Shown in pieces: positions 6,667 to 39,162 of a stretch of DNA of 46,858 bases. Source of the DNA: an uncultured Porphyromonadaceae bacterium (GTDB taxonomy: Bacteria > Bacteroidota > Bacteroidia > Bacteroidales > UBA12481); NCBI GenBank assembly GCA_964444375.1, contig CAYUGX010000003.1:1-46858 (forward strand), in the 5' to 3' direction. Made by a program: the position numbers and the translations under genes. Position 1 is the first letter of the stretch, and every line of letters starts with the position of its first letter. Below the pieces are notes generated by a model. The model did no database searches and was not told the DNA's origin. It saw only the letters and a list, made by a program, of their open reading frames with translations.

Positions 6667-9600
6667 ATGAACCTATATTGTAGAATCATAGTTTTTGCAC
6701 TTGTTATAATTGGATTAGTTAATCAAACAGCCTTGGGCCAGGTGCTGGGCGGCCGTTACTTCACTTTTGCTACCGTAGTTCGAGTGAATCAGATCGAAAC
6801 ATCCCGAACTGGGATGCATGGTGCCGATGAATCAGGCATACACTCACCCGTTGAAGCAAAACTCTTCAGAGAAACAGTCGAAAAAGCCTGGCCGGGTGCT
6901 AGAATTACCTGGGCCTTCAGCTGGCAAGCCCTCAAAGACCAGCGGCCAAATTATTTAGGAATAAAAGAACTCGTCGTGCAATACCATCATCAATATGGTG
7001 ACGAGATCACCTTCCTTCCCGGAGGCTATTTCGCTAATATGTATAACACCCGGGAACAGGTCAACAAAGACTTGCATGAAGGCCTCCAAATGGTATCAGA
7101 AATGGTTGGTGATGGATACCGGCCTCAGGCTGTAATCGCTGGATTTCTGTCAGCTGAGAACCTGCGATATCTAGCTGAAGAAGAAGACATCCATGTTTGT
7201 CAGGGCAATATCTGGAGTCAATATGCGATCGACAATGGAGACGGAGAAGGGTCCATTTGCTATCCCTATTATCCATCCCTAGAACATTTTTGTAAACCAG
7301 CTCAAGGTGAAGACGATTTTATTGATTGTGTCAATCTGGATGGCTGGACCATCGATTTCTTGAATGGAATCTATCCAGGTGGAAGAAGAATAAATGGAGA
7401 ATGGTGCGGCAGTCGGCAAGGAGTAGGCCCAATTGAAACGGTTATCCGTTTAGGCACAGAAAGAGGCACAAAAGAAATGCTGCATGTTACTGCAGCACAT
7501 TTCGATAAAGGATTTGAGCTTAACAAATTTGGCTGGATTACCTGCACCTGGGAATTGGGGCTGGTTGAAGGCAGAAAGATTTGGGGTTATAATGGCCGCA
7601 ATGGGCTTGATGGCATGATCATCTGGCTCAGTGAACTTAGAAGACGCTGGCCCGATGCCCAATGTATCACCCATGGCGAATTTGGCCTGCTTTGGCGTGA
7701 TCAGTTCAAGAACAATGACGAACTGAATTACCAATTTGTTCAAAGGGGATCAGGGGTTTGCGGTTCAGATCCAGATAAAGAGATTCGTTGGTTCATGAAC
7801 AAAGATTTCAGAGCTGCATTGCACCGTGATTGGCGGAATAACGAAGCAGAAAAACTCATTGATTTTACGCGCTACGACATACCGGCCCAGGAACCTGATG
7901 ATCCAACACCAGGTCAGCACAGCCGCAACTGGAGCCTGATGAATCGACTCAATCAAAAAGGAACCAGACCTCAGGATCAACCCATGGATATTCAGAATCT
8001 CCTGCCGGATGAAAAAGAAGTGGTGAAAAAATGGTACCCCGACCTCATAAAAGAAGATCCTGTCATAGAGGAACTCTCCAAAGAATTCAATGATCCGGAT
8101 AAATTGTACCGACCTGGAGCTTTCTGGTGCTGGCTAAATGGCAACCAGACCAAAGAAGCCATTACCCGTGATTTAAACGAGATGAGTGAAAAAGGAATGG
8201 GGCGAGCCGAAATCTGGGATGTGGCAGCCATCTACAACGAGGATGACTATATTCCGGCAGGACCTGCATTCTTCAGCGATAGCTCGCTGGTGCTGATCAA
8301 ACACGCGTTAGACGAAGGACAGAAAAGGGGAATGAAAATTGGCATGGTGGGCTCAAGTGGTTGGAATGCCGGAGGCACCTGGGTCGAACCTGAGTGGGCC
8401 TCAAAACAACTCTATTTCTCATCAACCAAAGTACAAGGCCCGTTCAAAAAATCTATTGAACTCCCATTTCCCGAAGTGCCTGAGCAATGCCCGAAAGGAC
8501 CAAACGGTCTACCCGTATTCCATAAAGAAGTAGCCGTTATGGCCATTCCTGTACATAATGAAAAAAAGATCAACAGCATCGATGATATTGTGCTGATCTC
8601 AACCGATCACCCAGGTGGAAAAGTTGAAGTCAACCTACCAGCAGGTGATTGGGAAATTCTACGGTTCATCTGCTCAAACAACGGGCAAATGTTGATAGTA
8701 CCTTCACCGAAATCGAAAGGCTTATTCATCGATTTTCTGGATCCTGAATCTACCAAAAAACACCTGGGCTATTTCATGAAACGATTGGGATATAAACCCG
8801 GGGTCACAAAGAAAGGTGGGTTGGCCTATGTCGAATTTGATAGTATGGAGCTAGCTGAGGGAATACCCTGGACAGATGACATGCCTGCAATTTTCAAAAA
8901 ACAAAGAGGTTATGAATTAACCAGATATCTGCCCATTTTAACGGGTTGGGATATCGATGAAATAGCTGAACATTTTCTGTATGATTGGAAAAAAACGGTC
9001 AGCGATCAACTCATATACAGTCACTATATTTCCGGAAGAGAATTCCTGAATCAATACGGAATTGAACTGGTTGCTGAAGCAGGTGGACCAGGGCCTCCGG
9101 TCTGGGCTACCTGTCCGGTTGATGCCCTTAAAGCACTGGGTAACGTAAATCGACCAAGAGGAGAATTCTGGATCCAACACCGGGATATCTACCTGGTTAA
9201 AGAAGTGGCCTCAGCTGCCCACATCTATGGAAGAAAAGTAGTAGATGCCGAGTCTTTCACCACCTGGAGGCGATGGAAAGACAGTCCCTTCGATCTCAAA
9301 AAGAGTGTCGATCGGGCTTTTTGCGAAGGACTTAATTTTGTCACCTTCCATACCTTTGCCAGCACCTCTCCAGAAGATGGTCTGCCCGGCAGAACCTATC
9401 ATGCCGGATCTGATATCAACCATGCGAATACCTGGTGGAATAAATCGGGGCCGTTTATGGACTACCTCTCCAGATGCAGCTACCTCCTCCAACAAGGTCG
9501 ATTTGTGGCCGACGCCTGCTACTACTATGGTGATCAGGCTCCTAACTTCTGGCCCGCTCACCATGAAGTACCTGAGAAAATAATTCCGAATGATCTGGGC

Positions 9601-10797
9601 CCTGGCTATGACTACGACGTCATTAACAGTGATGTAATTCTACATAGAATGTCCGTTAAAGAAGGTAAGATCTTCCTACCGGATGGTCTCAATTACCGGG
9701 TAATGGTACTTCCAGATCAAAATCACATGCCCCTGGCCGTTCTCAAGAAACTTGAACAATTGGTCTCAGCAGGTGCAACCATCATTGGCCAAAAACCCTA
9801 TATGGTTCCCTACCTGAATGATCATGATGAAGATACTCAAGCACTGATCAAACTGGCCAACCTCATGTGGAGTGATGAGAAGAAAATCAATCATTATGGC
9901 AAAGGACGCGTGATCAGCGGAATGTCTATCAGAGAAGTTTTGCAGGCAGATGGTCAGATCCCAGATTTCAGTTATAACAAGCCCGGACATCTCGATTACA
10001 TTCACCGTAATACAGATGATGCTGACATCTATTTCATCCGCAACAAAGGGGATAATACCTACATGGGAACTGGCATCTTCAGGGTGACCGACAAAAATCC
10101 CGAGCTCTGGGATCCCGCATCCGGTAGGCAATTAAAAATAGAAAACTACAAAACTATTGGAGCCTCCACCGTTTTAAATCTGGATTTAGCACCCGGAGGT
10201 TCTGCATTTGTGGTCTTCCATTCAGGTAAAAGAAAGCTCGATATTGCAAATGAATCCAGTCATTCGGGCCATGTAATAGCCACTTTAGACAAAAACTGGC
10301 TAGTAAGCTTTCCTACCGGATGGGGTGCACCTGAATCGACAAGATTTAAGAAACTGAAATCATGGACAGAAGCGGATGATCCAGGCATTCGATATTTCTC
10401 AGGTACAGGTAGCTATACTAAAAGCTTCAAGATGCGCAAAGCTGACCTGGAGGGATCACAAATTCACCTGGATCTGGGCCAGGTGGCTGATGTAGCTGAA
10501 GTGATGGTGAACGGACAATCAGCCGGAATTCTCTGGAAGCCACCTTATACGGTGAATGTAACACCCTGGGTGAAGGCCGGAAAAAATGAACTTACAATCG
10601 AAGTAGTAAATCAATGGGTCAATCGTCTTACCGGGGATATGCTTGCTGAGCCAGCAGATCGCTTTTGCAAAACCAATATGCCCTATATCACCAGCGATGA
10701 TTTCGGGGTAGATAACTGGGCTGAGGGCGGTGATGAAACATACCGGGTGAAAACCTCCGGCCTGCTAGGACCGGTAGTAGTAAAAAAAATCAAGTAA
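6667..10797 (+). CDS. Secreted two-part protein: N-terminal ~480-aa domain of unrecognised function fused to a GH106-like (alpha-L-rhamnosidase-type) glycoside hydrolase with a C-terminal galactose-binding-like domain
   Basis: 1376-aa ORF with signal peptide MNLYCRIIVFALVIIGLVNQTALGQ. From about nt 8104 it carries segments typical of GH106-like Bacteroidota hydrolases: LYRPGAFWCWLNGNQTKEAITRDLNEMSEKGMGRAEIWD, DSMELAEGIPWTDDMPAIFKKQRGYELTRYLP, and the C-terminal YFSGTGSYTKSF...VMVNGQSAG...ELTIEVVNQWVNRLTGD. The family assignment is recalled, not searched. Confidence 0.55.
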   Translation: MNLYCRIIVFALVIIGLVNQTALGQVLGGRYFTFATVVRVNQIETSRTGMHGADESGIHSPVEAKLFRETVEKAWPGARITWAFSWQALKDQRPNYLGIKELVVQYHHQYGDEITFLPGGYFANMYNTREQVNKDLHEGLQMVSEMVGDGYRPQAVIAGFLSAENLRYLAEEEDIHVCQGNIWSQYAIDNGDGEGSICYPYYPSLEHFCKPAQGEDDFIDCVNLDGWTIDFLNGIYPGGRRINGEWCGSRQGVGPIETVIRLGTERGTKEMLHVTAAHFDKGFELNKFGWITCTWELGLVEGRKIWGYNGRNGLDGMIIWLSELRRRWPDAQCITHGEFGLLWRDQFKNNDELNYQFVQRGSGVCGSDPDKEIRWFMNKDFRAALHRDWRNNEAEKLIDFTRYDIPAQEPDDPTPGQHSRNWSLMNRLNQKGTRPQDQPMDIQNLLPDEKEVVKKWYPDLIKEDPVIEELSKEFNDPDKLYRPGAFWCWLNGNQTKEAITRDLNEMSEKGMGRAEIWDVAAIYNEDDYIPAGPAFFSDSSLVLIKHALDEGQKRGMKIGMVGSSGWNAGGTWVEPEWASKQLYFSSTKVQGPFKKSIELPFPEVPEQCPKGPNGLPVFHKEVAVMAIPVHNEKKINSIDDIVLISTDHPGGKVEVNLPAGDWEILRFICSNNGQMLIVPSPKSKGLFIDFLDPESTKKHLGYFMKRLGYKPGVTKKGGLAYVEFDSMELAEGIPWTDDMPAIFKKQRGYELTRYLPILTGWDIDEIAEHFLYDWKKTVSDQLIYSHYISGREFLNQYGIELVAEAGGPGPPVWATCPVDALKALGNVNRPRGEFWIQHRDIYLVKEVASAAHIYGRKVVDAESFTTWRRWKDSPFDLKKSVDRAFCEGLNFVTFHTFASTSPEDGLPGRTYHAGSDINHANTWWNKSGPFMDYLSRCSYLLQQGRFVADACYYYGDQAPNFWPAHHEVPEKIIPNDLGPGYDYDVINSDVILHRMSVKEGKIFLPDGLNYRVMVLPDQNHMPLAVLKKLEQLVSAGATIIGQKPYMVPYLNDHDEDTQALIKLANLMWSDEKKINHYGKGRVISGMSIREVLQADGQIPDFSYNKPGHLDYIHRNTDDADIYFIRNKGDNTYMGTGIFRVTDKNPELWDPASGRQLKIENYKTIGASTVLNLDLAPGGSAFVVFHSGKRKLDIANESSHSGHVIATLDKNWLVSFPTGWGAPESTRFKKLKSWTEADDPGIRYFSGTGSYTKSFKMRKADLEGSQIHLDLGQVADVAEVMVNGQSAGILWKPPYTVNVTPWVKAGKNELTIEVVNQWVNRLTGDMLAEPADRFCKTNMPYITSDDFGVDNWAEGGDETYRVKTSGLLGPVVVKKIK

Positions 10798-10821
10798 AAA
10801 CAGGATTAAGGATAATTCAAG

Positions 10822-11448
10822 ATGAAAAGAAAAGCAATCGTTTTTGGTGCAACCGGGAAAACCGGAGTTCATATCTGCGATCAATTGGCGGCTCAGAAAA
10901 TTCAATATGCAATCTTCGCTAGATCTGAATCAGCAGGAAAGGTCTCCAAAGACCAAAAAACAATCCTCACCGGAGACGTAATGAATCCCAGCGATGTAAA
11001 AGATGCTGTATCATCAGATGAATATTCAGACGTGATCATCGCACTCGGAAGTAAAGCACTGAGGGGATCCACCATACGATCTAAAGGAACCGAGAACATC
11101 ATTGCCGCAGTCAAAGAAGCTGATATTTCAGCGACTATACATGTAATCAGTGCGTTGGGTGTGGGTGAAAGTTGGGACCAACTCAAATGGCATGCAAAGT
11201 TGTTGTCGAACCTTCTATTGAAAAGCGTTATGAACGATCATGCTATTCAGGAAAAAATGGTCATTGACAGTCAGCTAAAGTTCCATATCATCAGACCGGT
11301 TGGTTTGAAAGACGGGGAAGCAACAGATACGGTTCACGTTCAAGAGAAAGGATATCTTCCCAAAGAATACATCCAAAGAGCAGATGTGGCAAAATATCTG
11401 ATCGACAGCTTGCTTGAAAACAAAGAAGGCTTCAGCTCAATCTGCTAG
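10822..11448 (+). CDS. NAD(P)H-binding protein, atypical SDR (NmrA / BVR-B-like)
   Basis: 208 aa with the N-terminal Rossmann motif KAIVFGATGKTGVHI and no signal peptide. It starts 24 nt downstream of the GH106-like gene. Confidence 0.6.
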   Translation: MKRKAIVFGATGKTGVHICDQLAAQKIQYAIFARSESAGKVSKDQKTILTGDVMNPSDVKDAVSSDEYSDVIIALGSKALRGSTIRSKGTENIIAAVKEADISATIHVISALGVGESWDQLKWHAKLLSNLLLKSVMNDHAIQEKMVIDSQLKFHIIRPVGLKDGEATDTVHVQEKGYLPKEYIQRADVAKYLIDSLLENKEGFSSIC

Positions 11449-11460
11449 CTTTAGACTTGT

Positions 11461-13275
11461 TTATAATGAAAGAACATATACCATCAGATTGTTGAGATCT
11501 CTACTTGACAACTTACTGGTTCTTCCATGGGCATCATCATGATTGAATTCAGTAAAAACAGCTTTCATGGTCTTTGCCCGGCCATCATAAAGATATGGAG
11601 CTGTGCGCCAAACTTCATTCAAGGCAGGTACATCAAACTTGTCGTTTTCATGGGGTGGAAGACCGGTTCCTACATCGTATTTGAGGCCATCGGTGTAAAA
11701 GGGTCCAGAATGACAATCGGCACAACCCACCCTTCGAAAAACCTTTCGTCCACGTAGGGCTGCCTTGGATAATTTGCCATCATGTAAATACGGACTGGGA
11801 ACGGGCCGCAACGACTTCAAATAGACATCAATAGCCTGGGCCTGGGCTTCGTGATATTGGGTGAACAGAATATACTTAATTCCTGACCGCACAGCAATTT
11901 CAGCACTGTCACGAACACCTGTGATCATCACAGGAGGAGTAAAGTGCGTAAAAAGCATGCTTTTCACGTTCTTGGGGTTCCCCATCCCATCATTCAACAA
12001 ATCCCAATTGAGCCCGTCAGCTCTGGCATCCGGGTGACAGCTAATGCAAGATTGCCATTTTTGAAAACACAAATCTGCATCGCAAAACAATAGTTCTCCC
12101 TGCCGGGCTTTTGACATTTCAGGCTCTTGGCCTAGTTCAATCTTCACTTGCTTATCTGGCTGTTCAAGGTCGGTTATAACCACCAGATGAGGAGAAAAAT
12201 AGCAACTTACCAGGATTTGCTTACCAAAACTTTGTACGTGACGAGGGGATTTCGCCTGTGTTGAAATTCTTTTCTTGATACCATGAAGAAACTGGAAATT
12301 ATACGGTACTTCATTGATTTCCTGAGCGCTGCTGCCATCGATACGAGCATGAAGTTTGTCCAGATCAATCACCGCTAACTCATGCACACCCGATAAAGCA
12401 ACCAGCAATGTATCACCCTCTGGTGATAAACACATACCTGATGGATTAGCCGCTCCTCGGTCGAAATCATCGAGCAGAAAGGTTGTGATAAAAGCCTTGT
12501 TATCTGTATCCAGAACAGACACCGCATTGCAGTTAATCCAGCCATGCTCAATCTGTGTAGTTGGCAAGGTGTTCCTTGACAATATATGCGAAGCGTACAG
12601 GTATCGGCCATCTCGTGAAAAGACAAGGTCCCGGATAGAATGGCTTCCATTGGTTAAAACTACGGTCTCCACCACCTGCAGAGTTTCACTATCAATGAGA
12701 CTGATCGTTGCCGAAACGAAAGTATCGTTCGCGGCACCATCCGGCAGGGAATTAGCCACCCCAACCAATTGACCGGATGGTGAAATCGCAATAGCACTGG
12801 GTTCACGACCAACAGGCACTTCTTCAATGAGTTCAAGGCTTCGGGTATCAATAACAGATAGGCTGTTTGAAAAGCGATTTCCAACATACAGGCGATAATC
12901 TGATGGTGAAATCGCCATGGCTTCAGGGCTGTGTCCGACCCGAATACTGCGAATTATTTCACGGGTTTCAAGAGATATCGCATGTACAGATCCTGCCGGT
13001 TTTCCATCCGTAACGTAGAGAATCCCAGCATCTGGTCCAACAACAGTCTCACCCGGATTAAAAGGGAGAGGTATGTACCCTCCAAATTCACCTTTTGCTG
13101 CATTGACCACAGCAATTTTTCTCGCGGTTGATAGGCTGACATAACATTGCTGTGACGCAGGATTTTCACTAATATAGGTAGGTGACAGATAAGGTTGCTC
13201 CTCTGAAACCGGGCCGGCTTTAGGAAGAAAGGAGAGCCCTGAGATTATACAAAATAGTAATAAAACCCTCTTCAT
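11461..13275 (-). CDS. Periplasmic YVTN-type beta-propeller fused to a di-haem cytochrome c peroxidase / MauG-like domain
   Basis: 604 aa with signal peptide MKRVLLLFCIISGLSFL. There are repeated propeller strands (LYVTDG, LYVGNRFSNSLSVID, VGVANS, LLVALSG). Two CXXCH haem motifs are present (CISCH, CADCH), in CCP-type context (GELLFCDADL...SCISCH; VPALNEVWRTAPYLYDGRAKTM). Its ATG overlaps the upstream stop in TAATG at 13273-13277. Confidence 0.7.
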   Translation of the reverse strand: MKRVLLLFCIISGLSFLPKAGPVSEEQPYLSPTYISENPASQQCYVSLSTARKIAVVNAAKGEFGGYIPLPFNPGETVVGPDAGILYVTDGKPAGSVHAISLETREIIRSIRVGHSPEAMAISPSDYRLYVGNRFSNSLSVIDTRSLELIEEVPVGREPSAIAISPSGQLVGVANSLPDGAANDTFVSATISLIDSETLQVVETVVLTNGSHSIRDLVFSRDGRYLYASHILSRNTLPTTQIEHGWINCNAVSVLDTDNKAFITTFLLDDFDRGAANPSGMCLSPEGDTLLVALSGVHELAVIDLDKLHARIDGSSAQEINEVPYNFQFLHGIKKRISTQAKSPRHVQSFGKQILVSCYFSPHLVVITDLEQPDKQVKIELGQEPEMSKARQGELLFCDADLCFQKWQSCISCHPDARADGLNWDLLNDGMGNPKNVKSMLFTHFTPPVMITGVRDSAEIAVRSGIKYILFTQYHEAQAQAIDVYLKSLRPVPSPYLHDGKLSKAALRGRKVFRRVGCADCHSGPFYTDGLKYDVGTGLPPHENDKFDVPALNEVWRTAPYLYDGRAKTMKAVFTEFNHDDAHGRTSKLSSRDLNNLMVYVLSL

Positions 13276-15632
13276 TACTGCATCTCAATCATGTCTATCC
13301 GTGGAAGAATAGCTAAAACTTTTTGTAGCTCATCAAAAGTACTCATCAGCATTTGGTAGTCTGGATCTTGGATACTTTTGAATACTGAACTCTTGCATGT
13401 CCCACTCCCTCCCTGTTCGGGATCTAAAGGAGCCCGCATTATGGGATTCAATTCAGGGTTGTCAATTCGCAAAGCGAACTGATTGGGATAAGAAAAGGCC
13501 GATAGATTATTTGCTTGTTTGTGGCAAGAAACACATCGTCTTTTGGCCAAATCTTCAAAGATAGCTGCAAATCTTTCAGGTATTTGTTGACGACAACCCC
13601 GATTGAGCTGGTAATTTGAATGACTCCCTCCATAATAGGGAACGTTCAGGTCCATCCACATATAAATTCGTAGCCGCTCATCTTCGCTCAGTGAAATCCT
13701 TTGCTCTCCTTGATCATTCGGATGACCCTCTTTAACAATCTTCCCTAATAGAGCGGCTTTTGATCCCCACTCACCTGGTTCAATTCGTAATATATTAGCT
13801 TCCTGTCCATTATAGGTTGGAATCCATTTTGTATACACATTGTTAAACGGAGCTACCGTACCACCCATGAGAAAGTCTTCTGCAGGTGTTTTCCGTCTGA
13901 CCAGATTCTCATAAGCGACATTAAAGAAGTCGGTTTTATCGCCACTTAATTCAAGATTTCCTGCCGGGTTATCTCGACCGTGACAGCGAACACAGTGCTG
14001 ATCAAAAATGGGTTGTACCAGGTGAGGAAAACTAAACCCACTAACTCCCCAGCTTGGCTTTTCAAGATTTTCTGCTTCCCGGGTCAAAGCCATAGGTGTT
14101 TTTCTTGCAGAACTTGCAACGTAATTGCGGTCGGCATGGCACCCTACACAACCCTGCACTTCTCCTGGCATCAAGTGGGTGAAAGTCCGCATTCGTTGAA
14201 AGGTCATCCCCTCATCATCAAGTGGTAAAAAGTATATGGGCTGACGGGCTGGTACCTTAAAACGAGCCGATCCATCTGCTTCAACCGTGGCAAATCCCCA
14301 TACCTTTTTAGGCGCATAGGTGGCACCTGAGCTAACGACTGGAAACTGGAATCCAAAAGCCCGCAGGTCAGGACTTATACTCAAAGGCTTCTCCATCTCC
14401 TGAATGATGGCCAGTTTCTTGATTGAACCTCGTTCCACCGACTCTGGAAGTCCATTGTAAACGTCCATCATCTGAATTTCGGCCCATTCTTCTTCACCTT
14501 CCAAACTGAGATCATGATTAGTGGGCAAAGAGGAGCTCATGAGTCTTTCCCGTGGACGTTTACGAATAGGTTGAGGCGAATAAAACCCCAGACCTTCAAT
14601 GCCTTGACCGGCAATCAACTCAGTCTGAGCCGAATTAGTATAGCTACGCAATTCAACACTTCCGTCTTTTGAGACCAGGTAATGGCTCCCATCCAATGGG
14701 AAAGGATTAACATAGGGTCCTACAATATCATTCCCATCGCCTTGATCAATTGGCCTGACCCTCACCTCAGGAGTAATATTTGTGATGGCTTCCTGGGCAT
14801 TTCCGCCAGCACCGGGGTCAATGATGCCAATGGCACCATGACAATGTCGATTGTGGGCGGTTAATACGCATAGAATCTTTCCATTGGATTCGGGAATCTC
14901 TCGTGCATCCATGAACGTAGCTGGTGACAAAACCCGGTTACCAAACACCCCGGCAAGCTTAGTGCCATCTGGGTTAATTGACCAAAGACTTTGAATCGGA
15001 ATGGCTGGTCGGTCGACATACTCCCAACGAGAATATAGAATCCGACCATCCTGCATCACCGAAGGGGTAAAATCATTCAGGTAATTGGCGCTTAAACGAA
15101 TTTGATTCAATCCATCATCATCACACTTGTATAATATTGGCGTGGTGGTGCTCCAACAATAGGCAAAGGCCGGTTTGCGATCCGACAAGAAAGCAATCTG
15201 ATCATTGGGCAGCCAGCACGCATTAAAATTGTTAGACGGATGGTTAGTGATTTGCGTCAGATTAGCACCATCAATATCAATTGTATAAAGTTGAAAATAG
15301 CCTGTCATCTCTCTTTTCCAGCTAAACAATACCGTTTGACCATCATAGTGCAGATTGGCGTCAAGAATTAGCCCCTTTTGGCTGTCAAGCAGCTTCACAA
15401 TCTCTTTGCTGGTCAAATCGTAGCAATACAGTCCTCCCCCGGGTTTGTTGTCCTCTTCGTGATAAGTATACACATGAGACGACCGTATGGCATGGCGTTC
15501 AACGAGCAGGATTTTTGTGAAATCAAGTGGTTCATTTGCCGGGTCATCCGTAGCTTGCGTTCGGTTGTCAGAAAAAGACCCAGCCAGAGAAAGAACCACA
15601 ATTCCCAAAATGAAAGTCAAGGTTGTTTTCAT
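13275..15632 (-). CDS. Periplasmic HzsA-related protein: PD40/TolB-like beta-propeller plus tri-haem c-type cytochrome region
   Basis: 785 aa with signal peptide MKTTLTFILGIVVLSLAGS. It has PD40-like propeller repeats and the segment DGRILYSRWEYVDRPAIPIQSLWSINPDGT, which I recall as typical of HzsA-related proteins. Three CXXCH motifs are present (CVGCH, CVRCH followed by NPAGNLELSGD, CVSCH). Confidence 0.6.
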   Translation of the reverse strand: MKTTLTFILGIVVLSLAGSFSDNRTQATDDPANEPLDFTKILLVERHAIRSSHVYTYHEEDNKPGGGLYCYDLTSKEIVKLLDSQKGLILDANLHYDGQTVLFSWKREMTGYFQLYTIDIDGANLTQITNHPSNNFNACWLPNDQIAFLSDRKPAFAYCWSTTTPILYKCDDDGLNQIRLSANYLNDFTPSVMQDGRILYSRWEYVDRPAIPIQSLWSINPDGTKLAGVFGNRVLSPATFMDAREIPESNGKILCVLTAHNRHCHGAIGIIDPGAGGNAQEAITNITPEVRVRPIDQGDGNDIVGPYVNPFPLDGSHYLVSKDGSVELRSYTNSAQTELIAGQGIEGLGFYSPQPIRKRPRERLMSSSLPTNHDLSLEGEEEWAEIQMMDVYNGLPESVERGSIKKLAIIQEMEKPLSISPDLRAFGFQFPVVSSGATYAPKKVWGFATVEADGSARFKVPARQPIYFLPLDDEGMTFQRMRTFTHLMPGEVQGCVGCHADRNYVASSARKTPMALTREAENLEKPSWGVSGFSFPHLVQPIFDQHCVRCHGRDNPAGNLELSGDKTDFFNVAYENLVRRKTPAEDFLMGGTVAPFNNVYTKWIPTYNGQEANILRIEPGEWGSKAALLGKIVKEGHPNDQGEQRISLSEDERLRIYMWMDLNVPYYGGSHSNYQLNRGCRQQIPERFAAIFEDLAKRRCVSCHKQANNLSAFSYPNQFALRIDNPELNPIMRAPLDPEQGGSGTCKSSVFKSIQDPDYQMLMSTFDELQKVLAILPRIDMIEMQ

Positions 15633-15796
15633 AGGACACAGTTTATGTCATGATCGTAAATTACTAAGGTAGAGGATAATTTCCTAAATGTTTATGTCCT
15701 ATTTTTTCCTGTAATTCCAATATCTTCAGTTATATGAAACAGGATCAGCATAATCTAATTAACTTTATGATTTTGTATCCTAATACCCGCAATACC

Positions 15797-17158
15797 ATGA
15801 AAGTCTTGAAAACAGCTATTCTTATCCTAGTTTGCCCCTTGCTTTTATCCTGCAATCCAAAAATTGATGAAAAACGGCAGTGGCCTTCGTATCGAGGCTA
15901 CTACTCAACAGGGTATTTAGATAATACCAACCTACCGGATCAATGGGATGTTGAAACCGGTGAAAATATCAAATGGGAAGTGGATGTTCCAGGCCTGGCC
16001 CTTTCTTGCCCGGTAGTCTGGGGTGATAAACTGTTTATTACAAGCGCAATCAGTGATTCTGATAATGAAATACTACGAGCCGGAAGCTATGTATCGTCAA
16101 ACCCGGTGGAAGACGAGTCAGTTCACGATTTTATGGTATACTGCTTTGATCGAAATTCGGGCGATAAACTCTGGGAAAGAACGGCTTACACCGGTATACC
16201 CCAAGTGAAAAGACACCCCAAATCTACCCATGCGAATTGCACCCCAGCGACAGATGGAAAACATGTGATCGCATTTTTTGGGTCTGAAGGTTTGTATTGT
16301 TACACGATGGAAGGTGATCTCCTCTGGAAAAAAGATTTCGGACGACTTCACGCTGGAGCCTGGGCTGAAGGCCGTGAAGATATTGAGTGGGAATTTGGGA
16401 GTTCTCCGCTAATTCATCGGGGAGTGGTGCTCATCCAATGTGATGTGAGATGGGAGTCATTTCTTGGGGCATTTGATATCAAAACAGGAGAAGAACTCTG
16501 GAAGCATCCAAGAAATGAACACCCGGGTTGGTGTACCCCAAATATTTACTCTTTTGAGGGCAAAGATATTGTTGTTATTAATGGCTATAAACACCGGGGT
16601 GCCTATGATTTCGAAACCGGAGAAGAGATCTGGCGAATGTCAGGCGGTGGCGATATTCCAGTTCCTACACCCCAGATTGGAGATAGTTTAATCTTTTTCA
16701 ACAGTGCACACGGCCGGTATTCACCTGTCATGGCAGTGAAAAAAAGTGCCCGAGGCGATATCACACTCGAATCCGGGGAAACAAGCAACGAATTCGTGGA
16801 TTGGAGTTTCTGGCGAGGGGGATCCTATATGCACACTTTATTACTGTACCAGAATCTGCTGTACAATGTGAAATGGAACGGATCCGTGCAATGTCTCGAT
16901 CCGGTCACTGGTAAAACACTCTTTAAAGAAACCCTCGGAACTGCCGATCAGTTTATTGCTTCACCCGTTGCTTCTGATGGAAAAATCTATGTGATCAGCG
17001 ATCTAGGAATGGTATATACCCTAAAAGCAGGCAGTCAATTCGAAATCCTGGCTGAAAATGATCTCAAAGAAATCAGTATGGTCGTTCCGGCACTTACAGA
17101 TGATGCCATTTACTTCAGAACAAAGAGCAAGCTGATTGCTGTCTCATCAACAGAATAA
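15797..17158 (+). CDS. PQQ-like / BamB-like beta-propeller lipoprotein
   Basis: The ORF is listed from 15734. The ATG at 15797 gives the lipoprotein signal MKVLKTAILILVCPLLLSCN. Propeller repeats are of PQQ-enzyme-repeat type (WPSYRG..., GDKLFITSA, GDLLWKKDFG, GEELWKH, GEEIWRM, GKIYVISDLG). Confidence 0.55.
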   Translation: MKVLKTAILILVCPLLLSCNPKIDEKRQWPSYRGYYSTGYLDNTNLPDQWDVETGENIKWEVDVPGLALSCPVVWGDKLFITSAISDSDNEILRAGSYVSSNPVEDESVHDFMVYCFDRNSGDKLWERTAYTGIPQVKRHPKSTHANCTPATDGKHVIAFFGSEGLYCYTMEGDLLWKKDFGRLHAGAWAEGREDIEWEFGSSPLIHRGVVLIQCDVRWESFLGAFDIKTGEELWKHPRNEHPGWCTPNIYSFEGKDIVVINGYKHRGAYDFETGEEIWRMSGGGDIPVPTPQIGDSLIFFNSAHGRYSPVMAVKKSARGDITLESGETSNEFVDWSFWRGGSYMHTLLLYQNLLYNVKWNGSVQCLDPVTGKTLFKETLGTADQFIASPVASDGKIYVISDLGMVYTLKAGSQFEILAENDLKEISMVVPALTDDAIYFRTKSKLIAVSSTE

Positions 17159-17165
17159 ATCAATC

Positions 17166-18281
17166 ATGTACAGGCTTTGTGTATTACTGATCATAGCCCT
17201 GCTGCCCGTCTTGGTATTTGGCCAGGAACTCTCGTTTAGGACAAATAGTCGTACGATTCTTGGTCCATATCAGGAAAAATCAGCGTCCATCAGTTCGGGT
17301 GACATCGATCAGGATGGTGATATTGATCTTGTCGTAGCCAATGGACGGCATTGGCCGGGTCAAAATCGCCTGTTCTTAAACAATGGAAGGGGCCAGTTTA
17401 CGGTGTCAAAACCACTCGGTCTGGAATGTGCAACCAGTTATACTGCCGAATTAGCCGACTTCGATGGCGATGGTGACCTGGATATTGCTGTTGGAAATGA
17501 TAGGGCCCCCAACCGACTTTTCTGGAACGATGGTAACGGTAATTTCACAGGTGGCGAGGCATTCGGTCATCTCAATGCGCCAACCAGAAACATTACGATT
17601 GCAGACCTTGATGCTGATGGAGATGCTGATATCCTGATCACAAACCGAGGAATGGAAAATGAAATCTGCTTGAATAATGGAAAAGGCCGCTTTGATAGGT
17701 GCATGGGATTTGGTAGCAAAGATGATTCTACTATCGATGTAAAAGCTGTTGACCTGAACGGAGACGGACTTCCAGAATTGGTTTTGGCTAATCGGGATGC
17801 ACAGCCCAACGTCATTCTGATCAATAGTACGGGACTCAAATTCTCAAAGCCCGTTCAGTTTGGAACAGGATCCGATAACACCCGGTCTATTGCAGTAGCA
17901 GACTTCAATGCCGATGGTCATATCGATATTGCTACAGCCAATATCGACGAACCAAATAGGATCTATTTCGGAGATGACCAATTCACCTTTTCAAAAAGCG
18001 TTGAATATGATCCTGGATCTTACAAATCTTACGCCCTGGCCTTAGCCGACTTCAACAAAGATGGATCACCAGATTTGGTTGTCGGTAACGCCGGTAGCGG
18101 AAATATGGTATACGTAAATGCCTATAGAGGCCTAGAATGGTATGAAATTCAACTCTCAGACCAGGCGCTATTGACCTATGATATTCTTGCAGTTGACCTC
18201 AATAAAGATCACCTGCCGGATATTATTGAAAGTAATTCTGATGAAATAAATCGCTTCTATCTGAATTTATTCAGAGAATAG
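17166..18281 (+). CDS. Secreted seven-bladed FG-GAP / VCBS-repeat (integrin-alpha-like) beta-propeller protein
   Basis: The ATG at 17166 gives the signal peptide MYRLCVLLIIALLPVLVFGQ (the ORF is listed from 17136). There are seven Ca-binding-type FG-GAP loops: DIDQDGDIDLVVAN, DFDGDGDLDIAVGN, DLDADGDADILITN, DLNGDGLPELVLAN, DFNADGHIDIATAN, DFNKDGSPDLVVGN, DLNKDHLPDIIESN. Confidence 0.7.
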   Translation: MYRLCVLLIIALLPVLVFGQELSFRTNSRTILGPYQEKSASISSGDIDQDGDIDLVVANGRHWPGQNRLFLNNGRGQFTVSKPLGLECATSYTAELADFDGDGDLDIAVGNDRAPNRLFWNDGNGNFTGGEAFGHLNAPTRNITIADLDADGDADILITNRGMENEICLNNGKGRFDRCMGFGSKDDSTIDVKAVDLNGDGLPELVLANRDAQPNVILINSTGLKFSKPVQFGTGSDNTRSIAVADFNADGHIDIATANIDEPNRIYFGDDQFTFSKSVEYDPGSYKSYALALADFNKDGSPDLVVGNAGSGNMVYVNAYRGLEWYEIQLSDQALLTYDILAVDLNKDHLPDIIESNSDEINRFYLNLFRE

Positions 18282-19018
18282 CCCTTCCTGAGTGGGATGA
18301 ATTTCGAGAATCTTGGGCTGATGGCTTTTTCGGGACAATTATAAATACAGCGCATGCACATCATACAGCTAAACCCAAAGCGTGGTTTGTCTTTCTTCCC
18401 CTGGCTTATATTTCTTGCCGGACAATTCTCCCAGCAAAGCCCACATGAAATGCAATGTCGGTTGGCGTGCAGCTCTAGACCAAAAAGGCGGGCGGCTGGG
18501 ATTTCGATTCGGCCGATGAAACTAAACAATCTGGATTTAACCCGTACCTGATGAATTGACTTGCTCCGATTGAGTATTGAGTCTCCAATAATGCTTATTC
18601 GATCTTCTGATTCATTGATCACCTTGAATGAAAGGTCATCGGGAAAAGCCATGATAAACGTTAATGGCATGGCCAATACTTCATCCACGATGATCTGATA
18701 GTTTTTCGTAACCAGCGTTTTTCTGAGGGTAGAAGTCACAGCTCCGTTCGCCCAGTGAGATGCACATCCGACTGCAATGAGACTAACATAATCATATAAG
18801 CCAGGTGCTAGTTTTTTTACAAACTTCTTTACTATAACAGGTGCATTAAACCCATGAACCGGAAACATCAATATCAAGTGTTTATTGGCTGTCAGAATAC
18901 CAGGATCAGTAAATTCCAACGGGGCGAGTGTTGTACGCTCGGATCCAAGGTGATTCGCCAACCGTTTTGCTAGATACAGAGCATTACCGGTAGGGCTAAA
19001 GTAAATTATCGAATGCAT
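18257..19018 (-). CDS. EFR1-family ferredoxin (flavodoxin-like N-domain plus 2x[4Fe-4S] ferredoxin domain)
   Basis: 253 aa. The N-terminus IIYFSPTGNALYLAKRLA is flavodoxin-like. Two cluster motifs are present: CISCGLCWENCP and CMMCMRCIYNCP. Its 3' end overlaps the convergent FG-GAP gene by 25 nt. Confidence 0.65.
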   Translation of the reverse strand: MHSIIYFSPTGNALYLAKRLANHLGSERTTLAPLEFTDPGILTANKHLILMFPVHGFNAPVIVKKFVKKLAPGLYDYVSLIAVGCASHWANGAVTSTLRKTLVTKNYQIIVDEVLAMPLTFIMAFPDDLSFKVINESEDRISIIGDSILNRSKSIHQVRVKSRLFSFIGRIEIPAARLFGLELHANRHCISCGLCWENCPARNISQGKKDKPRFGFSCMMCMRCIYNCPEKAISPRFSKFIPLRKGYSLNKFR

Positions 19019-19027
19019 ATCATCCTC

Positions 19028-19441
19028 TTAATACTTTGGAGATACCCTGATTGTTGTTTTTCCCTTCACTAGAAAAAGCCATTTCTCAAACTTCTTAGGC
19101 CCGAATTTTCCGAATGCATTATTCGAAAGCCCGTAACCTTCGATTGGAATACCTATTAGATTACTTTCCATCTTTCTGTTAGCGTCCTCGTCATGAAAAT
19201 ACCGTACTGCGTATTTCTTAGTCTTTAAGTTTTTAAAGGTAATTACACACTTGTTGTTTTTAATGCTCGCGGTTTGGCCATCTACCTGGTTCTTGTTTTC
19301 ATCAAGCAATTCAAGTGAGATTTGACCACTATTATTTCGAAGGTCCTCAATCTCAACAATGAGGGTGTGTTGTGCCGATACTGCTTGTCCACATGAGAAA
19401 AGAATAATGCTTATTATGATAAAGCCCAAATATTTTTTCAT
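19028..19441 (-). CDS. DUF2141-like secreted protein
   Basis: The ATG at 19441 gives the signal peptide MKKYLGFIIISIILFSCGQ (the ORF is listed from 19480). The body resembles DUF2141 proteins as I recall them: GQISLELLDE...YAVRYFHDEDANRKMESNLIGIPIEGYGLSNN. Confidence 0.55.
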   Translation of the reverse strand: MKKYLGFIIISIILFSCGQAVSAQHTLIVEIEDLRNNSGQISLELLDENKNQVDGQTASIKNNKCVITFKNLKTKKYAVRYFHDEDANRKMESNLIGIPIEGYGLSNNAFGKFGPKKFEKWLFLVKGKTTIRVSPKY

Positions 19442-19626
19442 TACTTGTAAATCAATATTTCTGTGCAAAGGTGACAACAAATCTTGATGAATTAATTACC
19501 ATATGGTAAGCAGTTCATATTGTGGATTTTCATTTCTATCTTTAAAAAATGATTAAGCGAATACCTACCATAGAATCCATGCCCTGGATCCTAATCCCGG
19601 GCCTATAACTAACCTTCCTTCCTGCA

Positions 19627-20934: not shown

Positions 20935-22368
20935 ATGAACACGAACAAGCGTCTTCAATCAAATCAGACGAATTCTCGTCGGAGATTTTTAAAAACCGGA
21001 CTCATAGCTGCCGGAGGAGTGGCCATTATACCTTCAAATGTGGTTTTTGGAGCCATTAAACCGAGTGATAAAGTCAATCTGGCTGGTGTGGGCATTGGTC
21101 ACCGAGGAGGTGCCATTCTCAAAACCCTGCACGCAACTGGCCTGGCAAATGTGGTGGCACTGTGCGACGTCGATATGGGAGCCGAACATACTCAAAGTGT
21201 GCTGGAAATGTTCCCAAATGTGCCTCGATTTAAGGATTTCAGGCAAATGTTTGACAAAATGGGTAAGCAAATTGATGCAGTAAGCATTGGCACACCCGAC
21301 TTCTCACACTTTCCCATTACCATGTTGGCCATGTCACAGGGCAAACATGTTTATGTCGAAAAACCCCTGGCCAGAACCTTCAATGAGATCGAACTGATGA
21401 TGGCTGGAGCCAAAAAGTATAAAGTGGCCACACAAATGGGTAACCAGGGGCATTCTGGAGGCAATTACTTCCAGTTTAAGGCCTGGACTGAGGCAGGCAT
21501 CATAAAAGATGTAACGGCTATTACAGCGCATATGAATAGTGCGAGAAGATGGCATGGTTTTGACCCAACCATTACTAAATTTCCTGATAAGATGCCCATT
21601 CCTGAAACCCTGAATTGGGATGTTTGGCTCAATACTGCCCAGTTTCATGAATATCACAAAGATTACCATCACGGGCAATGGAGATGCTGGTACGATTTCG
21701 GAATGGGAGCACTCGGTGACTGGGGAGCTCACATCATGGATACAGCCCATGAGTTTTTAGACCTGGGATTACCTTATGAGGTGAATCCAACCTACCTGAA
21801 GGGACACAATTCATTCTTCTTCCCATTTTCTTCAACTTTGATTTTTAAGTTTCCTGAGCGGAAGAACATGCCGGCTTTAGATATAACCTGGTATGATGGA
21901 ATCGATAACATTCCAAGCGTACCTGAAGGATACGGAGTGTCTGAAATTGATCCGAATGTACCACCACCAAGTACCGGTGCCTTACAACCAGCAAAACTGA
22001 ATCCCGGTAAAATCATATACAGCAAAGACCTGACTTTTAAAGGGGGAACCCATGGTGGAACACTTTCTATTATACCTGAAAAGAAGGCACAGAAGATGGA
22101 ACGGAAGTTACCCGAGGTACCTGAAAGTCCTTCAAATCACTTTAAAAACTTCTTGCTAGCTTGTCAGGGTAAAGAAAAATGTCGTTCCTCATTTGATATC
22201 GCCGGGCCTTTGAGTCAGGTATTCTGTTTGGGGGTTATTGCCCAACGTTTAAGTACCCGTATTGAATTTGACCGTTCAACTAAACAAATCACAAACGATA
22301 AATTTGCGAATCAATTGTTGGTGGGAACTCCTCCGCGTAAAGGTTGGGAAGAGTTTTATAAACTCTAA
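20935..22368 (+). CDS. TAT-exported Gfo/Idh/MocA-family NAD-dependent oxidoreductase (possibly GH109-like or glycoside 3-dehydrogenase-like)
   Basis: 477 aa with the canonical twin-arginine signal NSRRRFLKTGLIAAGGVA. It has a Rossmann start VNLAGVGIGHRGG, the EKP motif (HVYVEKPLA), and GALGDWGAHIMD plus the C-terminal PPRKGWE segment common in periplasmic members. Confidence 0.65.
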   Translation: MNTNKRLQSNQTNSRRRFLKTGLIAAGGVAIIPSNVVFGAIKPSDKVNLAGVGIGHRGGAILKTLHATGLANVVALCDVDMGAEHTQSVLEMFPNVPRFKDFRQMFDKMGKQIDAVSIGTPDFSHFPITMLAMSQGKHVYVEKPLARTFNEIELMMAGAKKYKVATQMGNQGHSGGNYFQFKAWTEAGIIKDVTAITAHMNSARRWHGFDPTITKFPDKMPIPETLNWDVWLNTAQFHEYHKDYHHGQWRCWYDFGMGALGDWGAHIMDTAHEFLDLGLPYEVNPTYLKGHNSFFFPFSSTLIFKFPERKNMPALDITWYDGIDNIPSVPEGYGVSEIDPNVPPPSTGALQPAKLNPGKIIYSKDLTFKGGTHGGTLSIIPEKKAQKMERKLPEVPESPSNHFKNFLLACQGKEKCRSSFDIAGPLSQVFCLGVIAQRLSTRIEFDRSTKQITNDKFANQLLVGTPPRKGWEEFYKL

Positions 22369-38004: not shown

Positions 38005-39162
38005 TCAGCTTGCTGTTACCTCCTCCAGAATAATACGGTAATTTGTCAGGGTCAAATCAGAAATCTCCCGACCGTATGGACTGGCTGAAGGTAGTAAAAC
38101 AAAACCTCTACCAGAACCTGAGGTGCCCTCCTCAATGGAACTCCGTACCACCTTTCTGAACTGGTCGGTTGGTAAATTCTCTATATCAGTAATCTCAATA
38201 TTACCGAAAAGAACCAGTTGCTTACCATACAGTTTTCGGGCTACAGCTAGTTCAAGATTCCCATGTGGCGGAGGTTCTAGAGGGTCAATAGCATCGGCAC
38301 CCATATCAACAATGGCCGGTAAAACTTCATTGACATTACCATGAACGTGTACGCGTGCATAGCCCCCATTTCTATGAATTGCATCAATCATTGGTCCATC
38401 GTATTGAACAACAAAATCTGCAAAGAAGTTGGCCGGAAAAAAGGGGGGAGTGACATATTCGGGACCGTAGATTCGCCAAAGATGTCGAGGCAGTAACGCC
38501 GAAACCTGCTCGGTCCTGGCCTGTATAATTCTTGCGTGCTTCCTGAGCATTTGATGGCATAAATCAGGCTCGGTAAAGGCAAAGAGTGCAAATTCTTCCA
38601 TGGGAAACAATCCAGCCACCACACAAACCGGATCCTCGGTGTCTACCATTACAATTCCTCTGTTACCCAGACGCTTTTCCTCTTCATAGAGGGGTTCACA
38701 ATCTATTGTTTCTCCAAAAACCTCATCCGGCAGTGCCAGGTAGGTCAACACATCCTCTCGAGTTTTGATTAGATACTCAATGGTCCAGACTGTGTCAAGC
38801 GATTTATCTCTTCTTGTCACTGAGCTCAGCACCTTTTTTCCTAGCGTATAGCTCAAGCGGGAGAATGTACTTCTGTCATCTTCCCAGCTTTCTAACTTAA
38901 CATACTTCTCTATGGCGGGATTTTGATTAGCGTGTTCCCAGGCAAGATGTGAGGTTTTTCGAACTGGACTCATCATCCGCATAATATCAGTGTGATTTTC
39001 AGCTAAATCCAACAAAGGCTTCCAGGATGGAGAATTGTATACGTTATATTCATCTTGATTATCTGGATTCACAAGAAATCCCCCAATCTCATAAAAACTC
39101 AGGGCAGGTCGGTCTACAGGTTCTCCAGCCAGTGTTTTGAGTAAGCGTTCCTTAGAATTCAT
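38005..39162 (-). CDS. Uroporphyrinogen decarboxylase (URO-D)-fold family protein, not canonical HemE (MtaA/CmuA-like paralog)
   Basis: 385 aa with no signal peptide. The N-terminus KERLLKTLAGEPVDRPA matches the URO-D family start. However, the HemE PVWxMRQAGR segment is replaced by PALSFYEIGG. The C-terminal GADAIDPLEPPP and GFVLLPSASP are TIM-barrel URO-D-like. Confidence 0.5.
   Translation of the reverse strand: MNSKERLLKTLAGEPVDRPALSFYEIGGFLVNPDNQDEYNVYNSPSWKPLLDLAENHTDIMRMMSPVRKTSHLAWEHANQNPAIEKYVKLESWEDDRSTFSRLSYTLGKKVLSSVTRRDKSLDTVWTIEYLIKTREDVLTYLALPDEVFGETIDCEPLYEEEKRLGNRGIVMVDTEDPVCVVAGLFPMEEFALFAFTEPDLCHQMLRKHARIIQARTEQVSALLPRHLWRIYGPEYVTPPFFPANFFADFVVQYDGPMIDAIHRNGGYARVHVHGNVNEVLPAIVDMGADAIDPLEPPPHGNLELAVARKLYGKQLVLFGNIEITDIENLPTDQFRKVVRSSIEEGTSGSGRGFVLLPSASPYGREISDLTLTNYRIILEEVTAS

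Follow-up and report, generated by a model that had tools for sequence, protein, structure and literature searches.

Hydrazine synthase (HZS), the enzyme of anammox bacteria, was long held to have no relatives. Suarez et al. 2023 (PMC10732223) described an hzsA-like gene directly upstream of a fused hzsBC-like gene in non-anammox Phycisphaerae (UBA1845), and proposed that HZS-like enzymes make up a broad family with other substrates. A search of GTDB by Hagglund et al. 2025 (PMC12758564) recovered co-located alpha-like and beta-gamma-like genes in four clades (I-IV), with FG-GAP/CRTAC1 genes adjoining the HZS-like pairs of clades I-III. That analysis reported a two-residue gap at Ser590/Tyr591, a canonical haem alphaI pocket and key residues that are not conserved, and its verdict was that the non-anammox homologues are not hydrazine synthases; its supplementary hit tables hold proteins from Prolixibacteraceae, Roseibacillus and Kiritimatiellae. 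Here we describe a pair of this kind in a 46,858-nucleotide stretch (the window) of contig CAYUGX010000003.1 from an uncultured Porphyromonadaceae bacterium, in which a gene for an HzsA-like (alpha-like) tri-haem protein is followed by a gene for a fused HzsB/HzsC-like (beta-gamma-like, or BC-like) di-haem protein. Judged from its sequence, the pair is related to anammox HZS in ancestry and architecture, yet is not a hydrazine synthase.

We propose, with moderate confidence, that the two proteins are subunits of a periplasmic five-haem c-type cytochrome complex of an 'HzsA-related / HZS-like' non-anammox family, related to HZS but distinct from it. A preceding sequence-only reading of the same DNA had cautiously suggested a periplasmic multi-haem complex outside anammox metabolism, which the sequence comparisons below bear out; no characterised orthologous enzyme system exists. 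The novelty implied by that reading did not survive, as co-located alpha-like and fused beta-gamma-like genes had already been published (PMC10732223, PMC12758564). The kind of pair is therefore known, and its family is large and uncharacterised. What is new here is the size of the alpha-like family, its discoidin and carbohydrate-binding-module (CBM)-like add-ons, its glycan-locus context, and the lineage pattern of the pairing; how very large the family is, its CBM-like fusions and its glycan loci are subjects that neither Suarez 2023 nor Hagglund 2025 takes up. 'HzsA-related protein' is the protein name in use at NCBI, and we found no literature under the name 'HzsA-related'.

Both open reading frames and their TAATG coupling are exactly as the sequence-only reading had claimed, and every motif that it quoted (CVGCH, CVRCH, CVSCH, CISCH, CADCH, RWEYVDR and VPALNEVWRTAPYLYDG) is present where it had been placed (Table 1). 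The identical one-base overlap is found in a relative, locus L018 (genes 10001-12361 / 12361-14193). The pair forms its own two-gene unit, convergent with plus-strand genes for glycoside hydrolases and an esterase, a block that ends at 11448, and divergent from the PQQ_2-propeller and FG-GAP genes that start at 15734. A scan of positions 11200-16000 for promoters and terminators gave counts no higher than those in shuffled sequence (10 vs 9.0; 6 vs 4.8), and we therefore draw no inference from it. A 98-kb metagenome contig of the Joint Genome Institute, Ga0115649_1000701, is identical to the window over the region of the pair, and the closest genomic relatives of the alpha-like gene, at 68-73% identity, are in metagenome-assembled genomes (MAGs) of Prolixibacteraceae and other Bacteroidota.

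Table 1. Positions of the HZS-like gene pair, its domains and motifs, and selected neighbouring genes in the window. Fractions give conservation among the 120 closest homologues of the window protein, a separate set for each protein.
Feature	Coordinates	Strand	Evidence
HzsA-like (alpha-like) tri-haem protein gene	13275..15632	-	785-aa open reading frame
Fused HzsB/HzsC-like (beta-gamma-like) di-haem protein gene	11461..13275	-	604-aa open reading frame
TAATG stop/start overlap of the two genes	13273..13277	-	TAA and ATG with one base in common
RWEYVDRPAIPIQSLW (RWEYVDR segment), family-specific propeller insertion	14982..15029	-	both true HzsA sequences gapped here
HZS_alpha middle domain, aa 402-499, first haem motif at its end	14136..14429	-	Pfam PF18582, profile positions 1-97 of 98
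CVGCH, C495/C498/H499, aa 495-499, corresponds to HZS haem alphaI motif	14136..14150	-	120/120; aligns to Kuenenia C583/C586/H587
CVRCH, C547/C550/H551, aa 547-551, corresponds to HZS haem alphaII motif	13980..13994	-	120/120; aligns to Kuenenia C685/C688/H689
CVSCH, C700/C703/H704, aa 700-704, third haem motif	13521..13535	-	119/120
YVTN-type seven-bladed propeller, HZS-beta-like, aa ~30-380	12136..13188	-	sequence and AlphaFold2 matches
Di-haem CCP/MauG-fold domain, HZS-gamma-like, aa ~385-604	11464..12123	-	domain-profile search
Cys403, lone cysteine 7 residues before the gammaI-like CXXCH	12067..12069	-	120/120, no conserved partner cysteine
CISCH, C410/C413/H414, aa 410-414, corresponds to haem gammaI motif	12034..12048	-	120/120; aligns to gamma C102/C105/H106
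CADCH, C518/C521/H522, aa 518-522, corresponds to haem gammaII motif	11710..11724	-	120/120; aligns to gamma C225/C228/H229
VPALNEVWRTAPYLYDG, peptide quoted in the sequence-only reading	11578-11631	-	present in the 604-aa protein
His583 in HG.TS motif, predicted to complete the bis-His ligation of the gammaII-like haem	11527..11529	-	120/120; aligns to gamma His332
PQQ_2/BamB-like propeller, probable lipoprotein, possible accessory gene	15734..17158	+	Pfam PQQ_2 63.8 bits; divergent
FG-GAP repeat protein, possible accessory gene	17136..18281	+	Pfam FG-GAP_3 202.7 bits
Gfo/Idh/MocA oxidoreductase	20935-22368	+	twin-arginine signal SRRRFLK; BT_2158 glycoside 3-dehydrogenase family 311 bits (cut-off 750)
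AP_endonuc_2 TIM-barrel protein	39234-40103	+

The alpha-like protein begins with an N-terminal signal-like helix, followed by a PD40/TolB-type propeller (Pfam PD40, 34.4 bits), the HZS_alpha middle domain and a C-terminal haem region. The HzsA-type profile match that the sequence-only reading had anticipated is significant (Pfam HZS_alpha, 80.3 bits; cut-off 26.6). When the protein was compared with all PDB sequences, chain A of Kuenenia HZS (5c2v) was the top or near-top match (E=1.3e-12), and the same chain was the best structural match of an AlphaFold2 model (770 columns, TM (template modelling) score 0.58-0.60, E=7.7e-28). This model has a predicted local distance difference test (pLDDT) score of 83.4 and a predicted TM score (pTM) of 0.82; models of both proteins were built on alignments of 70 and 73 sequences. 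The next structural matches were to TolB and covered the propeller only. Six-bladed TolB/PD40 propellers match the N-terminal propeller at a TM score on the target of about 0.5-0.55, but they lack the middle and haem domains, and about 330 of the 785 residues of the alpha-like protein align with them.

The middle domain leads into two CXXCH motifs (aa 495 and 547) about 50 residues apart, a spacing kept in all paralogues checked. The third motif, CVSCH, belongs to some 125 additional C-terminal residues, and Kuenenia HzsA ends before this extension. An invariant histidine, H637, lies three columns away from the column of the alpha distal ligand His772. The propeller carries many invariant His, Glu, Asp, Tyr and Arg residues, and within the RWEYVDR segment R202, W203, E204, Y205, D207 and W217 are each conserved in 120/120 homologues. 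The sequence-only reading had taken this segment as a trait of HzsA-related proteins; it is indeed a typical insertion of the non-anammox family, but true Kuenenia HzsA lacks it.

For the beta-gamma-like protein, the best NCBIfam match was the hydrazine_BC fusion family (153.2 bits), and the beta and gamma families scored 127.7 and 86.7 bits; the YVTN repeat was matched at 66.2 bits. Chains B and C of 5c2v were the top or near-top matches among PDB sequences (1.8e-36 and 6.8e-22), and the AlphaFold2 model (pLDDT 83.4, pTM 0.86) had 5c2v_B as its top structural match, with a TM score of 0.88 on the target. The Pfam family of cytochrome c peroxidase (CCP) and MauG, CCP_MauG (PF03150), was matched above its cut-off over aa 389-459 only (31.6 bits; cut-off 25.6). 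A profile of the di-haem domain scored 113 bits against HZS gamma (E=1e-31), and at most 46 bits against any CCP, MauG or MbnH structure (E=5e-11 or weaker). The homology to HZS alpha and to a beta-gamma fusion that had been claimed from the letters is therefore confirmed by the HZS_alpha, NCBIfam BC fusion and 5c2v chain A, B and C matches.

Next to the gammaI-like site, His444 and Met450 are invariant like the nearby Cys403, and lie in a stretch that AlphaFold models poorly (aa 421-456). These three residues may provide a sixth ligand, a replacement haem link for that made by HZS Cys165, or a redox cysteine.

True HZS sequences were taken from the anammox metagenome contigs L032 and L034, and aligned with the window proteins and 120 homologues of each. 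L032 is a 100% match to the Kuenenia beta fragment and encodes a gamma of 353 aa and an alpha of 809 aa, and L034 is an 85% relative. L033, L034 (Ga0194120_10001440), L035 and L036 are lake-water metagenome contigs on which the hzsB-hzsC-hzsA set is complete and shows about 85% identity to Kuenenia across the beta fragment; the order beta, gamma, alpha on these contigs is opposite to that of the non-anammox pairs, including the window, where alpha comes before beta-gamma.

All of the three-part HZS architecture is present in the window, with an alpha (propeller, middle and haem domains), a beta propeller and a gamma with a CCP-fold di-haem domain. The HZS of Kuenenia stuttgartiensis (5c2v) has this same inventory and is the best match, in sequence as in structure, of each of the three parts, and its alphaI, alphaII, gammaI and gammaII CXXCH motifs all align with the window proteins. 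The beta-gamma fusion of the window also has its counterpart in anammox bacteria, as the HZS of Scalindua contains a beta-gamma fusion. A global MAFFT alignment put the alpha-like protein at 29% identity to Kuenenia HzsA; we set this value aside, as it counts co-occupied columns only and Foldseek gave 17-18%.

Around the haems, the similarity breaks down at the residues that define HZS. Behind the alphaI motif, the window protein has no counterpart of the segment that bears Tyr591, and 120/120 homologues and six distant paralogues share this deletion; the columns of Tyr588-Arg592, which lie within a 22-column gap, are empty in 120/120. In HZS, Tyr591 is the proximal ligand of haem alphaI and the CXXCH histidine, His587, is diverted to a zinc ion; with the Tyr591 segment deleted, the CXXCH histidine of the window protein would be expected to serve as an ordinary haem ligand. 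The equivalent of another zinc ligand, alpha Cys303, is ambiguous: MAFFT in its automatic mode places it at Ile271, matching by eye suggests Cys264, and an L-INS-i alignment with distant paralogues differs; Cys255 and Cys264 are missing from the distant alpha-like paralogues.

In gamma, the loop carrying Cys165, which makes the third covalent link to haem gammaI in HZS (PMC12758564, PMC12607021), falls in a seven-column gap and is deleted in 120/120 homologues as well as in the window protein. The column of Asp168, a residue at 4 Å distance from the gammaI iron to which a part in proton supply is ascribed (PMC12758564, PMC12607021), holds Y, H, F or L in the window protein and its 120 homologues. 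That of His144 holds Ile451 in the window protein and I, V, S, A or M among the homologues. The window pair thus has neither the Tyr591/His587-Zn arrangement nor the third thioether of Cys165, Asp168 or His144, and it has in addition a third haem, on its C-terminal extension, and the RWEYVDR insertion, both foreign to anammox HZS. Other features are retained. W424/D425/D429 around gammaI correspond to gamma W117/D118/E122, and both axial histidines of haem gammaII are kept (H522 and H583, each 120/120), these being His229 and His332 in the HZS crystal structure (PMC12607021). From the alignment, this bis-His electron-entry haem gammaII appears to be ancestral. At the place of the HZS beta tunnel loop (245-260), which bears a Mg-binding Glu, a loop is present, but it is of low confidence in the model (aa 236-245, pLDDT <50); in a pairwise alignment, for which the offset of the HZS numbering is ambiguous, the Glu pair of the HZS tunnel loop faces Gln241 and Glu243.

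One could nevertheless ask whether the pair is a genuine but divergent HZS, or another enzyme that forms N-N bonds or converts nitric oxide (NO) or hydroxylamine by a two-site tunnel mechanism. The shared subunit inventory and fold, together with the retained gammaII bis-His ligation and W424/D425/D429, are what such an enzyme would be expected to show. Set against these are the deletion of the Tyr591 segment and of the Cys165 loop and the replacement of the Asp168 proton donor, and scores that fall far below the NCBIfam equivalog cut-offs (NF052339-NF052342): 60.5 vs 800 for alpha, 153.2 vs 1250 for the BC fusion, 127.7 vs 560 for beta and 86.7 vs 625 for gamma. Moreover, no gene for hydrazine dehydrogenase (hdh), for a protein of the HAO type (hao) or for any other anammox function was found in the 47-kb window (26 open reading frames of at least 150 aa, 22 of which, the pair among them, were scanned with Pfam and/or NCBIfam). 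The host is a Bacteroidota glycan degrader, unlike the hosts of anammox HZS, and the hosts of the family are heterotrophic glycan degraders; the published analysis reached the same verdict (PMC12758564). We therefore consider a divergent HZS extremely improbable, and reject an anammox identity of the pair on its residues, its scores and its genomic context. The substrate is not NO plus ammonium. The sequence-only reading had also listed NO/hydroxylamine handling and heteroatom coupling as options, and these lose their basis because the Tyr591/His587-Zn, Cys165 and Asp168 features are deleted or replaced.

The non-anammox homologues are the only handle on how HZS evolved and on its ancestral chemistry, and the window offers a clean, complete and translationally coupled example in a glycan-degradation region of Bacteroidota. 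The comparison suggests that the architecture, the four aligned haem sites and the bis-His gammaII are ancestral features of HZS, and that Tyr591/Zn, Cys165 and Asp168 are inventions of the anammox lineage. As the family has been reported and is uncharacterised, the value of the locus is as a well-defined target for biochemistry rather than as a discovery, and as a handle on a possible link between HZS-like proteins and glycan catabolism.

Like the published non-anammox pairs, that of the window has its alpha-like gene immediately upstream of a fused beta-gamma-like gene, with an FG-GAP gene nearby. It differs from the pairs of clades I-III, which have Trp at the position of gamma His144 (PMC12758564), and this Ile in place of Trp sets it outside those clades as described. 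It also lacks a Cys at gamma 165, its beta-gamma protein bears no additional haem motifs at the N-terminus, and it keeps alphaII and adds a third haem. Going by the published clade descriptions, which set it apart, the window pair probably belongs to clade IV or to an undescribed clade.

To what extent the two genes travel together was examined across alpha-like loci (21 for the neighbourhood counts, within 10 kb of the gene). The order alpha-like, BC-like (A-BC) with the genes adjacent is found in all four Bacteroidota loci in which the downstream flank is present (L003, L014, L017 and L018). It also occurs in a MAG labelled Gemmatimonadales (L008), in Proteiniphilum-type L038 and L042, where a CcsBA haem-attachment gene lies directly upstream, and in verrucomicrobial L040, where the partner is an alpha-like/FGE-sulfatase fusion. 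The BC-like proteins of L037, L038 and L040 are 43-48% identical to that of the window, and the alpha-like proteins of L038 (27%) and L040 are 26-27% identical. Overall, a BC-like gene is present within 10 kb in 6 of the 21 loci. Co-conservation, which the sequence-only reading had proposed as a test, is therefore partial: it holds in Bacteroidota and some remote lineages, and fails in the closest orthologues from the Planctomycetota-Verrucomicrobiota-Chlamydiota (PVC) group. The A-BC module is real and old, but it is not obligate.

Paralogues are clustered in some genomes. In Roseibacillus, six genes with an HZS_alpha domain lie within 22 kb (L028/L029/L030); the five whose haem region could be read carry at least two CXXCH each, while the edge of the locus truncates the sixth. 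One of the Roseibacillus paralogues (L028/L029/L030, L012) is fused to an FGE-sulfatase domain and another to HEAT repeats and discoidin, and their neighbours encode a sulfatase, Gfo/Idh/MocA, AP_endonuc_2, BNR_4 and a PQQ_2 propeller, with no BC-like gene among them. A Sunxiuqinia locus reads A-BC-A'-x-A''.

The di-haem domain shares with CCP, MauG and MbnH (PF03150) the two-haem CCP fold, a Pfam match above the cut-off and the motifs of the C-terminal haem domain (FD.P.L...APY.HDG). Unlike these proteins it is fused to a YVTN propeller, its profile lies nearer to HZS gamma, and its column for the inter-haem Trp holds Ile, Val, Ser, Ala or Met. By alignment, its second haem is predicted to be His/His-ligated, not His/Met as in CCP or His/Tyr as in MauG. 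Judged by eye, the distal Gln/Glu pair of the peroxidatic haem seems to be missing, with the caveat that the N-terminal haem domain aligns to CCPs too weakly for these positions to be located. These comparisons bear on two alternatives. The beta-gamma-like protein could be a cytochrome c peroxidase that detoxifies periplasmic H2O2, with the tri-haem alpha-like protein merely its electron donor. The CCP_MauG match and the CCP-like C-terminal motifs agree with this, as does the solitary position of many BC-like genes, which would suit a self-sufficient enzyme. However, the inter-haem Trp is replaced by Ile/Val, the predicted ligation is His/His, and the N-terminal haem domain aligns only weakly to CCPs; further, a plain donor would need neither a 785-aa protein with a propeller of invariant polar residues nor a radiation into more than 1,200 clusters. 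We regard this alternative as unlikely.

MauG and MbnH are di-haem CCP-fold enzymes encoded beside their substrate proteins. A maturase of this type, oxidising residues of the alpha-like protein to a protein-derived cofactor, would agree with the adjacency of the two genes and with the MbnH and MauG entries among the PDB matches. It would further fit the pairing of one conserved BC-like protein with divergent alpha-like proteins, and the presence in some loci of several alpha-like genes per BC-like gene. Yet the domain is much closer to the catalytic gamma of HZS than to MauG or MbnH, the Trp used for hole hopping in MauG is missing, and many alpha-like orthologues have no BC-like gene nearby, so that we consider a maturase very unlikely.

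The surroundings of these genes are rich in functions related to glycans. As the sequence-only reading had noted, SusC/SusD, HTCS (hybrid two-component system) and sulfatase genes lie near the pair, and so do glycoside hydrolases (GH): the glycan island of the window comprises GH95, a GDSL esterase, a GH106 fusion, a sulfatase, GH2, a beta-helix protein, SusD/SusC and an HTCS regulator. GH95 is directly upstream of the alpha-like gene in Prolixibacteraceae and Novipirellula, and GH78 rhamnosidases flank it in one Kiritimatiellae genome. A Gfo/Idh/MocA gene occurs within 10 kb in 10 of the 21 loci, in four phyla; in L015 it immediately adjoins the alpha-like gene, and in L045 one gene separates the two. 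Other recurring neighbours are sulfatases, AP_endonuc_2, 3-keto-disaccharide hydrolase and PQQ_2 propellers. An N-terminal F5/8-type-C (discoidin)/DUF7402 domain is present in about 29 of the 120 closest alpha-like proteins, and the Prolixibacteraceae orthologues have an added C-terminal Mala_s_1-like domain. In a scan of 1.84 billion 50%-identity representatives with HMMER, the alpha-like family comprised 1,240 clusters at E<=1e-30, a number that rose to 3,567 at E<=1e-10, and is far larger than the 'few' alpha homologues of the literature.

This genomic context points to a redox role tied to periplasmic glycan catabolism. If the company of Gfo/Idh/MocA, glycoside hydrolases, sulfatases and CBM-like domains reflects function, the family would represent a new redox component of marine polysaccharide turnover. 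We found no literature linking HZS-like genes to fucoidan or sulfatase biology, a paper on fucoidan and Planctomycetota does not mention cytochromes, and literature on glycoside 3-dehydrogenases and cytochrome c yielded nothing relevant.

In the window glycan locus, a Gfo/Idh/MocA protein with a twin-arginine translocation (Tat) signal and an AP_endonuc_2 protein are hallmarks of an oxidative 3-keto-glycoside cleavage route (only for the window copy was the Tat signal checked). A further possibility is that the pair, or just the alpha-like protein, is a periplasmic electron sink or oxidase for oxidative (3-keto) glycoside cleavage by Tat-exported Gfo/Idh/MocA. The frequency of Gfo/Idh/MocA neighbours, the Tat signal and BT_2158-family match of the window copy, the AP_endonuc_2 and 3-keto-disaccharide-hydrolase neighbours and the discoidin/CBM-like fusions all go in this direction. 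In contrast, the enrichment is modest against an assumed background, hydride-to-haem transfer would need a flavin or quinone mediator and none is evident, no link was found in the literature, and the published Bacteroides 3-keto pathway is redox-neutral; this role seems unlikely. About as doubtful, in our estimate, is a broader proposal in which the alpha-like proteins are a radiating class of periplasmic glycan-catabolic haem-c enzymes, themselves substrate-specific modules that bear CBM32-like, FGE-like or extra-propeller add-ons, and with Tat-Gfo/Idh/MocA and a shared, conserved BC-like protein as partners. If that were true, a periplasmic redox system linked to carbohydrates would be the source from which anammox HZS was recruited, and polysaccharide-utilisation loci would hold an unrecognised class of oxidative haem enzymes.

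We return to the five-haem complex that we favour. Covalent attachment of haem c requires export, and both proteins have signal-like N-termini, as read from their hydrophobic character, which is the basis for a periplasmic location. The two proteins would form a heteromer, by analogy with HZS. The beta-gamma-like subunit would be a module of the CCP/MauG type, in which electrons may pass between a surface bis-His haem (C518/C521/H522 and H583) and a reactive haem with His ligation (C410/C413/H414). The alpha-like subunit, with its three ordinary CXXCH sites and polar-rich propeller, might be the partner that binds the substrate and relays electrons.

Several observations weigh against this proposal. 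The closest non-Bacteroidota orthologues of the alpha-like protein, 48-69% identical and drawn from Novipirellula, Roseibacillus, Akkermansiaceae, Kiritimatiellae, Victivallales and Phycisphaerae, have no BC-like gene within 10 kb; the A-BC pairing is kept in Bacteroidota and not in the closest PVC orthologues. Some BC-like genes likewise stand alone. Because both genes are found unpaired, an obligate 1:1 complex is not universal. With Ile/Val at the inter-haem Trp position and the classical peroxidase residues not evident, CCP-like chemistry is itself uncertain. As for the link to glycans, the excess of Gfo/Idh/MocA neighbours has a binomial P of ~0.001 at a 20% background and 0.03 at 30%, both backgrounds being assumed, and the hosts are rich in glycan-type genes anyway.

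Two genes divergent from the pair are possible accessories. In the PQQ_2/BamB-like frame (15734-17158), an internal Met is probably the true start and would give a lipoprotein signal (...LLLSC). Its 23-nt overlap with the FG-GAP frame points to another small operon that diverges from the HZS-like pair. Homologues of the PQQ_2 gene adjoin alpha-like genes in Roseibacillus L028/L012 and lie directly downstream in Pirellulaceae L045, but the association is weak (3 of 21 loci), and no FG-GAP gene occurs in the other 20 loci examined. Beyond the FG-GAP gene are genes for an EFR1-family ferredoxin (18257-19018, minus strand; 144 bits, above the cut-off) and then a DUF2141 protein (19028-19480, minus strand), both located before a saccharopine-dehydrogenase-like gene; L001 has the same arrangement.

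Elsewhere, the distant HZS-like pair of L038 and L042 is part of a longer gene string: cupin-like, fused CcsBA (ResB and Cytochrom_C_asm), alpha-like, BC-like, small VOC-like, Dak1, Dak2 and DeoC. This places a dedicated haem-attachment gene and dihydroxyacetone kinase/aldolase genes around the pair; the cupin-like protein of L038 has a lipoprotein-type signal. A fusion of FkbO/Hyg5-N with RidA (L-PSP), with no counterpart in the window, is encoded near BC-like genes in three phyla (L008 4275-5396, L037 9895-11031, L038 955-2121 and L042 13016-14164), directly downstream of the BC-like gene in L008 and L037.

Within the glycan island of the window, the gene at 6667-10797 (plus strand) encodes an unusually large fusion of 1,376 aa, comprising DUF3863, DUF3864, a GH106 alpha-L-rhamnosidase and a GH2-type sugar-binding domain. 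Adjoining the HTCS regulator, at 38005-39162 (minus strand), is a gene for a protein of the uroporphyrinogen decarboxylase (URO-D) fold with weak similarity to MtaA/CmuA methyltransferases. URO-D-like genes near HZS-like loci account for 2 of 93 neighbour proteins, with a further one in L038 (1-351), and the window protein could be a component of a methyl-sugar demethylase.

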